64,000 bases of DNA from an uncultured Chlamydiae bacterium (GTDB lineage Bacteria > Chlamydiota > Chlamydiia > Chlamydiales > JAJFMA01). The notes under the pieces were generated by a model. That model ran no database searches and was not told the DNA's origin. It saw only the letters and a program-made list of their open reading frames with translations. Shown here one piece after another: positions 8,130-14,408 of the stretch (position 1 is its first letter; each line of letters opens with the position of its first letter). The position numbers and the translations under genes are program-made. The stretch lies in the NCBI GenBank assembly GCA_963713615.1, contig CAVQMM010000001.1, positions 2,688,001-2,752,000 of the forward strand. The letters run 5' to 3'.

Positions 8130-9103
8130 AATAGGATTTTTACCACAGAGAACGCCGAGATAGAAGAGAGAAGAAAGGAAAGAAAAGGACAAATGGTTCA
8201 TCCGGTTTTGTAGGACTTGACTACACAGGCAGGCGTGAGCCCAAAAACATGATTCATAGGATATGAGGTAATTGCAGAAGTCCGATTTTCCGAAGTCAAT
8301 TTCCTGAAAATCGGATGCCGGTGAAGAGAGAGTCATTCCCTTCCGAGGCCCGAAGGGTCGATATTGCAACAGGCCATGGCATCGCCACATAGGCCTCAAC
8401 CTAAGCCTAACAATCGTATCTCGGCGCGCAGCGCTTTGGAGTGCGGTCGCTTGCGACCGCTTTGGGTTCCTTGCGACGGTCGTGTGCAACGGCATCACTA
8501 TAATTCCCTAAGGGTAAAATAGTTAGTACATGCAGCCTTCGACGAATCCATACAATGCCGTTTAGCATTGCCGTCCCAAGGAACGAAAAGCGGTCGCAAG
8601 CGACCGCACTCCAAAGCGCTGCGCGCCGAGATACGATTGTGAAGTCCTAAGTCATTGAGATATAAGCTCAAAAGACCTGTTAGGTTGAGGCCTATGTGGC
8701 ATCGCCATGGTATATGCCAAAACGGTTTTAGCAGCCTGTAGGGCTGCCATAAAGCGCATGCATAAATGGTGTTTGTAAACTGGCGTCTTGTAGCAGTCCT
8801 TCAGACTGCGAAATCCCTTCCTGGCATATACCATGGCCTGTTGCAATATCGACCCTTCGGGCCTGGGAAGGGAGTTTCCAGACTGGATAATGCCATACCA
8901 CTTAAGCTCTCCAGAATCGCCTTCTCACAAAAAAAAGTGATTTTTTTTCAAAGAATCGATCCATGAGAGCCCAAATACTTCTGCAATTACCTCATATGGA
9001 CATCTATTAAACAATAAACAAAAACCATTCGATTTTTCTTCTCCTTCCTCTTCCCTTTCCTCTTTCTCTCCTATCTCGGCGTTCTCTGTAGTAAAATCCT
9101 ATT
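8130..9103. repeat. Nested inverted-repeat composite, copy 1
   Basis: Outer AGGATTTTTACCACAGAG...GAGATAG inverted pair. Inside it, perfect 17-bp TIR GAGGTAATTGCAGAAGT (8265) / ACTTCTGCAATTACCTC (ends 8993), flanked by ATAT, then further IR layers. Related copies at 36908, 61372 and 12208. Confidence 0.9.
8388..8696 (+). mobile_element. 309-bp non-autonomous element (IS4/IS231-like MITE) carrying a REP-like hairpin doublet
   Basis: TIR CATAGGCCTCAACCTAA/TTAGGTTGAGGCCTATG; 11-bp direct repeat TGGCATCGCCA at 8377-8387 and 8697-8707. Confidence 0.85.
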
Positions 9104-9114
9104 CCTCACAAACC

Positions 9115-9143
9115 TTGACAAAAAATAACTGCATAGGTAAAAT
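9115..9143 (+). promoter_or_regulatory. sigma70/sigma66-type promoter
   Basis: TTGACA-N17-TAAAAT; predicted TSS about 9150-9151, at the ATG of uORF1. Confidence 0.75.
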
Positions 9144-9150
9144 TGTGGCT

Positions 9151-9228
9151 ATGAAAGCAAAAACTCAGGTTCACATCCTCGCACCCTCGGTAGTCTTCGG
9201 CTCCATGTCCTGCTTGATGCGCGGCTAG
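9151..9228 (+). CDS. Putative leader peptide 1 (MKAKTQVHILAPSVVFGSMSCLMRG)
   Basis: Starts at the predicted TSS; homologous to uORF2; stop lies within hairpin ATGCGC-GGCTA-GCGCAT. Confidence 0.6.
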   Translation: MKAKTQVHILAPSVVFGSMSCLMRG

Positions 9229-9243
9229 CGCATATCATTTTTT
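9215..9243 (+). terminator. Candidate attenuator terminator overlapping the uORF1 stop
   Basis: TGATGCGC-GGCTA-GCGCATATCA followed by TTTTTT. Confidence 0.45.
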
Positions 9244-9297
9244 CCTCTTAGCCTCATTTTGTCCCAACTTAGTGGTTTTGAAAAAGCAGGAACCCAT

Positions 9298-9360
9298 ATG
9301 AAAAAAGCATATCAAAATATTTCGGTTTTTAGCGTAATGCACTCGATCATGCGCACTTAG
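9298..9360 (+). CDS. Putative leader peptide 2 (MKKAYQNISVFSVMHSIMRT)
   Basis: AGGA upstream; same VFxxMxx[LI]MRx-stop motif and ATGCGC-N5-GCGCAT hairpin as uORF1. Confidence 0.6.
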   Translation: MKKAYQNISVFSVMHSIMRT

Positions 9361-9429
9361 CGCATATAATCAATACCACTCCAGCGTTATTACATTTCGA
9401 ATATTTTATTAGAGGTTTATAATTATATC

Positions 9430-10821
9430 ATGCACATTCGTACACTTAGTATCATTCTTGCTTGGGCCACTTCAGCACTTTGTGCCGATTGGCGGCCAGA
9501 CATCTACATCTATTCCGACTTTGGAGGAGGGCAAAACCATGCCCATGAGCCAATTGCTGACTGGCAGACAGCCATTGAATTAGCAGAAGAGGGCTGGAAG
9601 CTGACTCATCATCCAAAAATTTTCATCAACGACGCAGCAACCCCGCTTCATCCTCAAAGAGCTGCAGGTCAAGTCGCGGCAACCTTTCCTTATTTGGGCC
9701 CAAAGGAGACCTCGACGATTGAACGCATTGTCGTTCACGTGGTGGATCCTTCGGTCGGCAATGCAAGTCAGCATCGACGGGCATTAGTTTTGCGCCGCGA
9801 TGGAACTCTGTTCATCGGTCCCGATAATGGAACTTTGAGCGCAGCATGCCCACCCGGTTCGCTAGCGATGATCTGGGAGATCGATATCCCACGTCTCAGC
9901 GCTTCGACGGGTCTAGATGTAGCGGCAGGAGGAACCTTTCATGGACGCGACGTCTTCGCAGCAGCAGGATACCTTTTATCCGCTGGACGTTTATCACCTG
10001 AAGACATTGGCAAGCCCTATCAAACGGCTGAGTTGGCCGTCCGTGTTTCTCCAATAGGGGAGAGTTCTAAATGCATCACTTTTCAAGAGCTTCCCACAAC
10101 ACGATGGATGTTAGAGGTGGGTTCGGACTCGTTATTCTCCGACGCCTATTTCTTAGCTATCGTACAGTCACCCCTCTATGTTGATGCTTCGCATGCACAG
10201 CTATTTATCGTAGATGACCGCACGTTGACCGAACGTGTAGCCATACTGAACCGCAAAACCCAGAATCTTTATATCGGGCCCAACAATGGCTTGGGAACAG
10301 GTTTCTTTATGGGATTTGATAAAGAGGATATTTGGATGGCTGAAGTATCCCAGGCCGTTTATGAGATAATCAAGGCTACTTCAAATGTCGCTCTGGTACG
10401 TGACCTCATTTTTAGACAGCCCAGGTTTAAGGAGGAGCTGGTTGTGGTGGACCTGCTAGCCAGAGAAAATGAGAGTAAACATATCTCAGGACACGTGTGG
10501 GCAGATGCCTATGGCAATCTCAAAACAACTCTTGATAGTGAGTTATATCAAAGCTTAATCGATGAAGGTTACACCAATTTAACCGTTGCACTGAATGGAG
10601 TATCCAAACAGGTGCGTATAGCAGACTCTTTTGCTGATGTCCCTGCAGGGACTCCGTTCGCCTATGTGGGCAGCTCTGGAGCTGTAGGACCAAATCCGCA
10701 CCGTTCTCGTCGTTATGTCGAATTGACTACCAATGGCATCAACGGGCAATTCGGGGTTGATCTATTTGATAATCCCCAATCTGGACAAGTCATCGAATTT
10801 TATTTTACAAAAAACATTTAA
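9430..10821 (+). CDS. SAM hydrolase/SAM-dependent halogenase (DUF62) family protein with predicted signal peptide
   Basis: YSDFG, HVVDPSVG, FIGPDNG, TFHGRDVFA, DAYGNLKT motifs; N-terminus MHIRTLSIILAWATSALCA. Confidence 0.8.
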   Translation: MHIRTLSIILAWATSALCADWRPDIYIYSDFGGGQNHAHEPIADWQTAIELAEEGWKLTHHPKIFINDAATPLHPQRAAGQVAATFPYLGPKETSTIERIVVHVVDPSVGNASQHRRALVLRRDGTLFIGPDNGTLSAACPPGSLAMIWEIDIPRLSASTGLDVAAGGTFHGRDVFAAAGYLLSAGRLSPEDIGKPYQTAELAVRVSPIGESSKCITFQELPTTRWMLEVGSDSLFSDAYFLAIVQSPLYVDASHAQLFIVDDRTLTERVAILNRKTQNLYIGPNNGLGTGFFMGFDKEDIWMAEVSQAVYEIIKATSNVALVRDLIFRQPRFKEELVVVDLLARENESKHISGHVWADAYGNLKTTLDSELYQSLIDEGYTNLTVALNGVSKQVRIADSFADVPAGTPFAYVGSSGAVGPNPHRSRRYVELTTNGINGQFGVDLFDNPQSGQVIEFYFTKNI

Positions 10822-10839: not shown

Positions 10840-12192
10840 ATGAAACGTGAATCATGGCGTAACCATGCAGGTTTCGCGCTGGCAGCAATGGGATCAGCAA
10901 TTGGCCTGGCGAGCATCGTCCGCTTTCCCTATATGGTAGCCGATCACGGCGGTGCAGCTTTTATCGTCGTGTATCTATTAAGTTTACTGATCATTGGCAT
11001 CCCCATCTTACTCGGTGAAGTAACTATGGGGAGGGCGACGCAAAAAAATCCTTACGGGGCCTTCTCTAAACTAGGTAAGGCACCTTTTTGGAAAGCAGGT
11101 GGTGCCTGGGTGCTCATGACAGCCTTCCTTGTCAGCGCCTTTTACAGCGCCTTGTCAGGGTGGATCTGTGGGTATCTCGTGGAGGCAGTCATGAATAATC
11201 TGTCAGGTCTCCACACTTCCGAATTAGCCACAAGCCATTTTAAGGGCCTTCTAGCAAGTCCCCTATGGGCTCTTGGATATCACTTTGTATTTCTGACTGT
11301 GAGCGTAATGGTCGTCTACGCAGGTCTGCGGGATGGCATCGAGCGCGGTTGTAAAGTCATGATGCCCTTGCTTCTAGTGACATTGCTATTGCTCGTCCTT
11401 AAGGGAATAACGCTGAATAACTCTAGCGAAGCGTTGCATTACTTATTCACGCCTGACTGGAGTCAAATTACCCCCAGTGTCGTTCTACTTGCCTTGGGAC
11501 AATCCTTCTTTAGCCTAAGCCTTGGCCAGGGAACGATGATTACTTACGGTAGCTATCTACCTAAGGGCACTCCCTTCGCATGGAACTGCATCGCTGTCGC
11601 CTTATCGGTAGCGTTGATTTCTATCATGGCCTCTATAGCGGTCTTTACGATTGTTTTTTCCGCGGGAATGGAAGCTCAGGGTGGATTAGGACTCATGTTT
11701 CAAACGCTCCCTGTTGTTTTTAGCAACATGGCCGGTGGATATATCCTGGGTTCCGTCTTTTTCGTATTAGTAGCTTTGGCTGCATTGACGTCAGAGATCT
11801 CAGCTCTGGAACCTGCCATAGCCTTTCTAGTGGATGAGCGGGGCTGGACGCGAAAGAATGCTGCAATAGGCGTAGGAACCGTAGCCTTTCTGATTGGAGT
11901 GCCCTGTGCCTTGTCTACAAACATTCTCGCTAATTGGACTGTGTGGGGTAGCAACATCTTAGAACTCTTCGATCTGGTTGCAACCACCATCCTAGTGCCC
12001 ATCGGTGGACTTCTCGGAGTCTTGCTAGTAGCATGGCGTTGGGGCTTTGGATATGCCTTTGAGGAACTGACTGGTGGATCACCGCAAGGGTATGAAGCGG
12101 GCCGCCTCTATTGGAAGACATGCTTAAAGTACTTGGCACCTGCTTTGATTTTGGTCATCTTCTTCAGCAACCTAGGTTTTTTTGGAGCATAA
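10840..12192 (+). CDS. Sodium-dependent NSS/SNF family amino-acid transporter
   Basis: RESW, AAMGSAIGLASIVRFPY, GGAAF, GIER, ALGQSFFSLSLG, ITYGSY, AALTS; RBS AGGAG. Confidence 0.92.
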   Translation: MKRESWRNHAGFALAAMGSAIGLASIVRFPYMVADHGGAAFIVVYLLSLLIIGIPILLGEVTMGRATQKNPYGAFSKLGKAPFWKAGGAWVLMTAFLVSAFYSALSGWICGYLVEAVMNNLSGLHTSELATSHFKGLLASPLWALGYHFVFLTVSVMVVYAGLRDGIERGCKVMMPLLLVTLLLLVLKGITLNNSSEALHYLFTPDWSQITPSVVLLALGQSFFSLSLGQGTMITYGSYLPKGTPFAWNCIAVALSVALISIMASIAVFTIVFSAGMEAQGGLGLMFQTLPVVFSNMAGGYILGSVFFVLVALAALTSEISALEPAIAFLVDERGWTRKNAAIGVGTVAFLIGVPCALSTNILANWTVWGSNILELFDLVATTILVPIGGLLGVLLVAWRWGFGYAFEELTGGSPQGYEAGRLYWKTCLKYLAPALILVIFFSNLGFFGA

Positions 12193-12371
12193 CAACGAAT
12201 ACACACGCAAAACGGTTTTAGCAGCCTGTAGGGCTGCCATAAAGCGCATGCATAAATGGTGTTTGTAAACTGGCATCTTGTAGAAGTCCTTCAGACTGCG
12301 AAATCCCTTCCTGGCATATACCATGGCGATGCCATGGCCTGTTGCAATATCGACCCTTCTACCATAGGATT

Positions 12372-12580
12372 TTGCAAACGATTATCGACGGTAATAGGAA
12401 AAGACAAAAAACATTTCTCTAAGGTATCATTTTGGCCGACGAAGGTGTGGCCGTGTGCCCTTAGCGAATGTTTGTTCGCCTGGCCCGATATGCCGCCTTC
12501 GTCGTTTGCATCATCCAATAATTCCGTTCGGGATGGTGCCAATCTTCTGATTGTGGCTCTGTAAGTAGAAGTGGAATTTG
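12372..12580 (+). ncRNA. Predicted IS110 bridge RNA (target-binding and donor-binding loops); 5' end approximate
   Basis: Stem 12437-45/12496-504 encloses CCCTT and GGCCCGA (target guides); stem 12520-25/12573-78 encloses CGGGATG and GTAGA (donor guides). Confidence 0.8.
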
Positions 12581-12622
12581 GGTGAAATTTAACGCTCACA
12601 AACACTTAACAGGGCATTTATC

Positions 12623-13819
12623 ATGCAAAATCAGTCCGAACTTCGTATTTGTCTAGATATCGGTAGCGTTCGACACTATGTAGCCATAGGCTTGTCCACA
12701 GGAGAACGCATCGATGGATTTTATCTAAACCACACTTCTGAAGACATTGAGCAGTTTTTTGAGAAAATTGAGAAGCTTAGAATTTCCTATAACATGCCTG
12801 TTGTCATGGCTATGGAGGGGTTTAATGGCTATGCTAGACCCATCGATAGATATGCTCTTGATCACGGATATTCTTTGTATAGTGTCAACAACATGAAATT
12901 GGCTAGATTTAAGGAAGTTTTTCCTGGTCCAGCCAAAACAGATCCAATTGACGCTTGGGCTATTTTTAGCTTGTTTCAAGTTCAAGAGACCTTACCGTTG
13001 GCAAAAAATATTCTGCAGAAAGTAGAGCCTCCACCGGTATGCAACGAGCAACTTAAACATATTTCAAGGCGTCGTAGAGAGTTGGTAAAAGAAAAGACAA
13101 GAATCATAAATCGACTTCAAGGGGATCTACAGGCTGTTTGCCCCGGTCTACTGTCTATTACAAAAAATCCAGCAAATCTTTGGTTTCTACGATTTCTTGC
13201 TTCGAAGGAAGACATGACCATGTTGCTTCGAATGCAAAAAAGAAGCCTGTTGCAAATCAAGGGCGTTGGAGAGGTTTATGCAGAGGAAATTCAGAAATGG
13301 CAAAAGACGGCTAAGTTCTCTTCAAAGGTTGAGTGGATAGGAAAATTAATAGTACGAGATGTCAGAAGGCTACTCGAGATGCTAGATGAAATAGCGCAGT
13401 TGGAGGTATTGATAGAGGGTTTGATCCCACAATCCAAGATAGCATCTCGGATTGAATCTATTCCTGGATATGGTTCCATTTGTGCCGCAGAACTCGCTGG
13501 AGAGATTGGTAGTATCGATCGGTTTAAGTCGGAGGCTAGTCTAGCGCTCTACTTGGGAATAGGAATTCTGAACAAGAGTTCTGGCCAATATGAGGGGTCT
13601 CGATCGCCTCGAAATATTAACTGGAGGGGAAAGGGAGCTATGATGACCGGAGCTGCTCGACATATACAACTATGTGATGAGGCTGCACAGTACTACAAGA
13701 AGAAGAGAGCAGAGGGAAAAAAACATAACCAAGCAGTACGAGCATTTGCCCGTCATATGATAAGAGTAATATGGTCGATACTCATACATGACAGGGATTA
13801 CCGTCAGAAGGAAGACTGA
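12623..13819 (+). CDS. IS110-family recombinase/transposase (DEDD RuvC-like plus Tnp20 domain)
   Basis: CLDIG, AMEG, KTDPIDA (DEDD); SIPGYG, F.SEASLA.YLG, NKSSG (candidate catalytic Ser), YYKKKRAEGKKHNQA. Confidence 0.95.
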   Translation: MQNQSELRICLDIGSVRHYVAIGLSTGERIDGFYLNHTSEDIEQFFEKIEKLRISYNMPVVMAMEGFNGYARPIDRYALDHGYSLYSVNNMKLARFKEVFPGPAKTDPIDAWAIFSLFQVQETLPLAKNILQKVEPPPVCNEQLKHISRRRRELVKEKTRIINRLQGDLQAVCPGLLSITKNPANLWFLRFLASKEDMTMLLRMQKRSLLQIKGVGEVYAEEIQKWQKTAKFSSKVEWIGKLIVRDVRRLLEMLDEIAQLEVLIEGLIPQSKIASRIESIPGYGSICAAELAGEIGSIDRFKSEASLALYLGIGILNKSSGQYEGSRSPRNINWRGKGAMMTGAARHIQLCDEAAQYYKKKRAEGKKHNQAVRAFARHMIRVIWSILIHDRDYRQKED

Positions 13820-14408
13820 GTTAGTTTAGCAAACGGGCTTTGTTCTGTTTGGCCTGAATGAACAAGGTCAGCAAATTCGGCGATGTTAGCTGAGCAGAAA
13901 AGGAGCACGGCTACTCTGCTTCGGCAACCCCATAGGAGTTGTATACAACCTTCCTAAGTAAATTCACCGTGTCCCTTCGCAGTTGAAAGGAGCACGGCTA
14001 CTCTACTTCGGCTCTATAAATTTAGCAAAATTAGAAAATAATTAAAAGTTTCAAAACCGAAGGAATTGGCATCGAAAAATCGCCTGAAAGCTACGAAAAA
14101 TCTTGAAAAATTCTAGCGGGATGTCGGGCCTGGGAAGGGAGAAAAGCCTGTCTTTCCAGACTGGATAGTGCCATACCACTTAAGCTCTCTAGAATCGCCT
14201 TCTCACAAAAAAAGGTAACCTTTTTTCCCGAGAATCGATTCTCAAGGGCTCAAATAATTTTGCAATTACCTCAAAGGGACAAAAAGGACTCAGGAGGCAT
14301 ACTCTACAAGTCCTTTATGTCTTTTATGTTCCTTTGGTCCTTTAGTCCAGTCCATCCAAGAGCGACACGCACTTCTGAGGGCCTTGTGCATGCTATTCGC
14401 CCGGCACA

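Follow-up and report, generated by a model that had tools for sequence, protein, structure and literature searches.

The window analysed here, a stretch of 64,000 nt from an uncultured Chlamydiae bacterium, carries upstream of a gene for a predicted SAM hydrolase a leader with two short ORFs, each of which ends inside a hairpin. Comparison with the sequences of relatives identifies this leader as a real, conserved regulatory element. We read it as a ribosomal switch that senses Met-tRNA, acts through a translational gate together with Rho and turns the operon on when methionine is short. To this reading as a whole we assign a probability of roughly 0.52; that the element senses codons is, taken by itself, very probable.

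The piece considered covers positions 9115 to 9429. At its start is a sigma-70-type promoter on the forward strand (9115..9143), made of the -35 box TTGACA, a 17-nt spacer and the -10 box TAAAAT, with 11 matches to the 12 consensus positions, in agreement with the original prediction. Since chance alone should give two sites that pass a weaker threshold in this region, only the quality and the position of the promoter count. It stands at the same place ahead of the leader in G001, G002 and L151. The first upstream ORF (uORF1, 9151..9228, forward strand) has 25 codons, with its ATG at 9151, TAG at 9228 and internal Met codons at 9205 and 9217. Judging its start site from the spacing to the -10 box, it is probably leaderless: 7 nt separate this box from the ATG, as in L151, with 8 nt in L003, and others have SD-like leaders. 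The second ORF (uORF2, 9298..9360, forward strand; ATG 9298, TAG 9360) has 20 codons, an SD sequence AGGA at 9288-9291 and internal Met codons at 9337 and 9349. Both ORFs are present as had been described, and their peptides match the motif then given for them; neither peptide matched the NCBIfam models. Each contains only two internal Met codons, four apart, with no consecutive run, and runs of 2-3 Met codons are found in several relatives.

The hairpin ATGCGC-N5-GCGCAT that had been predicted over both uORF ends was confirmed, and in the 3.97-Mb genome it occurs just twice, at 9217 and 9349. In hairpin 1 (9217..9233, forward strand) the 5' arm begins on the last Met codon and the stop codon lies in the loop. 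Hairpin 2 (9349..9365, forward strand) has the same design, its 5' arm again beginning on the last Met codon. A C/U-rich, G-poor tract follows hairpin 1 (9234..9263, forward strand), which may be a weak terminator tail or a Rho loading site, and includes the expected T6 (9238-9243, 4 nt past stem 1). The tract after hairpin 2 (9366..9395, forward strand) is also G-poor, with 8 C and 2 G in 30 nt, and has no U run, only 2 U being present in the 8 nt that follow the stem. Within uORF1 a pyrimidine stretch (9208..9215, forward strand) is predicted in the centroid structures to form 8 bp with the RBS of uORF2 (9284-9291). The whole leader folds no better than its shuffles (z -0.2); the support for the element is comparative.

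In total, 16 Met units were found at 12 loci, distributed over 9 genomes of 5 chlamydial families and 2 metagenome contigs. They stand in tandem at 4 of the 12 loci, and all 16 lie upstream of SAM-hydrolase, NSS-symporter or metNIQ genes. The enzyme is present in 3 of 60 relatives and the element accompanies it in all three (one unit in G002, one in G001 and two in G004). In G001 the enzyme and the symporter are encoded at separate places, each behind a leader unit of its own, and in G160, from another family, two tandem units precede the symporter alone. Three metagenome loci with sufficient upstream DNA, one of them being chlamydial G411, gave four more units; the enzyme contigs G381, L149, L152 and L153, which end too soon upstream, were left out. 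Models trained without the downstream gene yielded three new Met units, all ahead of metN, and a single-protein query for related loci in genome contigs found none. Before the metN gene of G135 (L303) there is a Met-containing short ORF with the loop of the G145 unit and an imperfect stem, perhaps a decayed member, that was left out of the count.

Of the 160 codons that precede the hairpin, 27 encode methionine, compared with 2.0% of codons in the genome, and all 27 are in frame with none out of frame. The conserved stem of 5-6 bp starts on the last Met codon. Its cells are paired in 96% of cases in the first 13 units, which were chosen by eye for Met codons and a hairpin and include kin that are not independent, and in 97% of cases in 25 model matches. 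Four stem pairs show two-sided change, and the stem pairing is reached by none of 500 shuffles, a control that ignores the relatedness of the units. The peptide motif, which the original prediction took for the conserved feature, is not kept across the units; what stays constant is Met codons in frame and the hairpin. Stem variants such as ATGTGC/GCACAT and ATGCCC/GGGCAT keep the pairs and alter the encoded residue. The proposed search with the exact motif recovered the leaders of G000, G001 and G002 but missed most members: the 13-base motif matched in 29 of 401 genomes, with leaders only in those three among the 30 loci inspected, and a 17-base pattern gave 84 stretches in 185,579 genomes, where about 69 are expected by estimate, 2 being genuine out of 80 inspected.

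The same leader design was also found with other codons. A model trained on 13 Met units (R1) matched in 10 of 101 genomes and in 3 of 5 chosen genomes. Its six matches outside the training set lie ahead of metN (one, Met), brnQ (three, Val), an APC permease (one, Lys) and an operon with S-Me-THD and hydantoinase genes (one, His-rich). Model R2 matched in 14 of 149 genomes and in none of the 26 from family f36. Two of its six new matches are at metN, two are at brnQ and two are His units, one of these ahead of an SSF symporter. Alignment A5 includes one junk match (L222, E 1.3). No model match was obtained in 74 control loci, made up of 26 loci of NSS paralogues (about 50% identity), the best 30 metI loci and 18 short DUF62 loci; those best 30 metI loci also gave 0 of 30 through the filter.

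In the brnQ model matches the stem begins on a Val codon in nine of nine cases, and their 90 codons comprise no Met and 34 Ile plus Val. The first stem pair, A-U in the Met form, is G-C in the brnQ form. With a looser filter, 16 out of another 59 brnQ loci were flagged, of which about 12 look family-like by eye, and 0 of 10 in f36; the brnQ counts were drawn from the filter output together with the model matches. This filter also flags two brnQ genes on contig C3 of the source genome, to neither of which R2 gave a score. Three consecutive brnQ genes are present there (G000:C3:40152-44610), the first two behind Ile- and Val-type hairpin leaders. His-rich leaders sharing one identical hairpin were seen at L195/L324 (G110), L332 (G105) and L333 (G173), placed before an unknown 264-aa ORF or an SSF symporter. 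In G110 the 264-aa ORF is followed by a permease-like ORF and the S-Me-THD and hydantoinase genes, and the operons with His leaders are candidates for the salvage of histidine or a histidine derivative. In G038 a Phe/Lys-rich leader (L194, 1501-1573), the stem of which begins on a Lys codon, precedes an APC permease that is closest to basic amino-acid antiporters; this row was left out of the codon tally.

The codon at the start of the stem thus tracks the transporter, which is a mark of charged-tRNA sensing. It is tempting, if a little less than evenly likely, to see here one portable leader design by which environmental chlamydiae run their nutrient importers, the stem-start codon being a sensor that a paired base change re-tunes (Met, Val/Ile, His, perhaps Lys). 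The sensing codon of the Met form would also hide the AUG of the next gene, and in tandem copies leader 1 would gate the translation of leader 2 as in a cascade.

Regarding the output step, in all six Pro-type units a Met codon with its flanks forms an in-register helix of 9-13 bp with the start codon that follows; among 1397 background starts, 0.1-7% do equally well. In the swap matrix, for which only energies, and not helix lengths, were used, five of the six Pro-type rows have their own gene as best partner. The fold of L003 reaches z -4.0 and that of L193 z -2.3. Four of the other 10 units reach a start-codon helix of 7-9 bp (6-9% of background), and in the window the helices of 5 and 4 bp are at chance level. 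According to folding prediction, opening the RBS of uORF2 costs 10.6 kcal/mol with uORF1 free and 7.5-8.1 kcal/mol with uORF1 covered, a gain matched by 2 of 40 shuffles; for the RBS of the enzyme no gain was obtained by covering uORF2 (from 4.0 to 3.8-6.9 kcal/mol). Covering the uORF gains at least 2 kcal/mol in 7 of the first 13 units and exceeds the shuffles in 4 of 13.

We suggest that the two uORFs act as serial sensors of charged Met-tRNA. In a shortage of methionine, ribosomes translating them would stall on the Met codons; a stalled ribosome would stop the leader RNA from covering the start site that follows, and would keep a long, naked C/U-rich stretch from Rho. The predicted SAM hydrolase and the likely methionine importer would then be turned on. 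In the window, the uORF1 helix is predicted to mask the RBS of uORF2, and unit 2 may be closed through Rho. The hairpin could serve as a brake or as a folding nucleus, and the two units could provide an AND-type sharpening of the response. Gate and Rho do not conflict, since Rho would act on a leader 2 that goes untranslated. Conservation, the in-frame enrichment in Met and the codon swap that tracks the transporter all support the ribosome-coupled Met-tRNA attenuator that was one of the options of the original prediction.

Met codons could also be sensed in a purely transcriptional way, through Rho. Here, as in tna, the stalled ribosome would hide a loading site to which both the pyrimidine-rich codons and the C-rich tract contribute; the hairpin between them would be looped out and the RBS pairing incidental. 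Rho is present in the genome, the tracts after the stem of the Met units hold 114 C against 20 G in 480 nt, and the brnQ members have poly-C runs. Moreover, the last 10 codons are depleted of purines at synonymous positions (127 against 156 expected from own-genome codon usage, z -5), 60-76 nt separate 9 of 13 units from the next start, and a like proposal was made for Cys leaders, as described in PMC1262725. The pyrimidine bias, however, equally fits an anti-RBS pairing and the covarying start-codon helix of 9-13 bp in the Pro-type units is left unexplained, which makes Rho acting without a gate rather unlikely. It is quite improbable that the hairpin and its U run are an intrinsic terminator, blocked directly when a ribosome stalls at the last Met codon; at best this suits unit 1. 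Unit 1 does score as terminator-like, and 6 of 16 Met units have at least 5 U among the 8 nt after the stem, but the other 10 have no U run, among them unit 2 of the window and G002 (2 and 0 U), and no conserved pairing partner for the freed 3' arm was found in 13 units. On these two grounds a classical transcription attenuator is unlikely.

Under arrest by the nascent peptide, which had also been considered, free Met or SAM would be the signal, and the C-terminal residues would halt the ribosome on the stop codon. Such an arrest would account for the Met that stands at -4 in 8 units among the first 13 and for a stop located three codons past the last Met in 10 of 16, and yet we strongly doubt it: the last Met is followed by Arg, Cys or Pro, the base changes between these being compensatory so that the RNA pairs are kept, the stop lies 3 to 11 codons further on, and the stem-start codon swaps to Val or His along with the transporter. 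The switch might instead have the opposite sign, stalling uncoupling the ribosome so that Rho terminates and the operon is off when Met is short. Rho polarity driven by stalling is described for C. trachomatis under Trp starvation (PMC7755916), but with this sign the importers (metNIQ, brnQ) would be silenced when they are needed, and the start-codon helix predicts opening on stalling; we regard it as very unlikely. Finally, a small ligand-binding RNA (a riboswitch for SAM or Met), or else an RNA signal with the ORFs as by-products, would fit with the RNA structure being the most conserved feature and with the SAM-using enzyme downstream. Against it, the Rfam search gave only three matches, all at chance level (E 4.8-9.9), the conserved pairing comprises just 6 bp, the upstream ATGs are in one frame in 27 of 27 cases and the same hairpin is found before brnQ. 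Such an RNA is hardly tenable, and the Rfam result and the brnQ hairpin likewise give no support to the earlier suggestion of SAM sensing.

The first gene of the operon (9430..10821, forward strand) encodes a 463-aa homologue of SAM hydroxide adenosyltransferase (DUF62), with PF01887 and PF20257 over cut-off and matches to PDB entries 2cw5 and 1wu8. Its score remains below the NCBIfam equivalog cut-offs (80.7 against 350 bits), and the protein is about twice the usual length. Residues D106, R117 and H171, which we take to be catalytic, are invariant in 55 homologues and were aligned to 1wu8. The N terminus appears signal-peptide-like. Such starts are seen in a distinct, long DUF62 subfamily (about 460-550 aa; 9430-10821 and homologues P0002-P0062), which scores well apart from the ordinary members of 250-310 aa. 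DUF62 enzymes are described as cleaving SAM to Met and adenosine (10.1101/2025.08.29.672840).

The second gene (10840..12192, forward strand) encodes an NSS-family sodium-dependent amino-acid symporter (PF00209), a candidate Met importer, the closest solved relative of which is 4us3 (E 3e-89). Its orthologues in G001 and G160 have Met leaders of their own. The genome is 99% complete and contains Rho and MetK. Neither of the two methionine synthase families searched in it (PF01717, PF02574) was matched and, therefore, this bacterium likely imports Met.

The operon is flanked by IS110 ends. Downstream there is an IS110 element (window 12208-14281, transposase 12623-13819), and directly before the promoter lies a copy of its ends with an internal deletion (window 8718-9002); pieces of this remnant are 98% and 79-92% identical to the downstream element. 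Between the upstream gene and this remnant there is an inverted repeat of 86 nt, 90% complementary (window 8410-8640), and pieces of it recur in several contigs of RNA run X1. Coverage by this run consists of two short coding pieces and does not extend to the leader.

Methionine is normally read via SAM riboswitches, T-boxes or repressors. According to PMC7755916, Chlamydia lacks validated attenuation by cis-acting leader peptides; the element would provide a compact, codon-swappable test case. It also suggests likely substrates for unannotated chlamydial transporters, namely Met for this NSS clade and His for an SSF symporter, and points to a salvage route in which a predicted exported SAM hydrolase would feed a Met importer in an auxotrophic intracellular bacterium.

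In E. coli tnaC, regulatory codons near the stop are combined with a pyrimidine tract and Rho, and TnaC needs a conserved peptide. The chlamydial units differ from an arrest peptide of this type in that both their C-terminal residues and the distance to the stop are variable. With trpL, ilvL and hisL (PMC7755916, PMC8079986) they share, as far as these leaders are described there, a short ORF in which cognate codons close to the end report charged tRNA, but they have neither an antiterminator nor a consistent U-tailed terminator. The literature searched (subscription journals mostly outside) gave no chlamydial leader of this kind, and in it a Met leader was named by PMC8079986 alone. This is metL, located before metNIQ in Streptomyces lividans, which is leaderless, contains Met, precedes a Met importer and has no typical intrinsic terminator. 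It is a single unit, annotated from RNA-seq, with a mechanism that this source states to be unclear. In the actinobacterial Cys leaders, as presented in PMC1262725, regulatory codons near the stop are also followed by a pyrimidine tract and Rho was proposed, whereas a conserved hairpin is lacking; the survey as presented there found no Met element.

The proposed mechanism resembles that of the polycysteine leaderless sORF attenuators of mycobacteria, in the account given by 10.1101/834739: a short, often leaderless ORF with cognate codons, a stalled ribosome that blocks an RNA structure hiding the next RBS, and salvage or uptake genes downstream. Unlike those, the chlamydial units use Met, with 2-4 codons that are often spaced, and occur in tandem; their hairpin is fixed and has the sensing codon at its start and, in the Pro-type units, it is the sensing codon itself that is predicted to pair with the next start codon. 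By comparison with that account, the chlamydial element is not a member of the mycobacterial group, but it would work like it.
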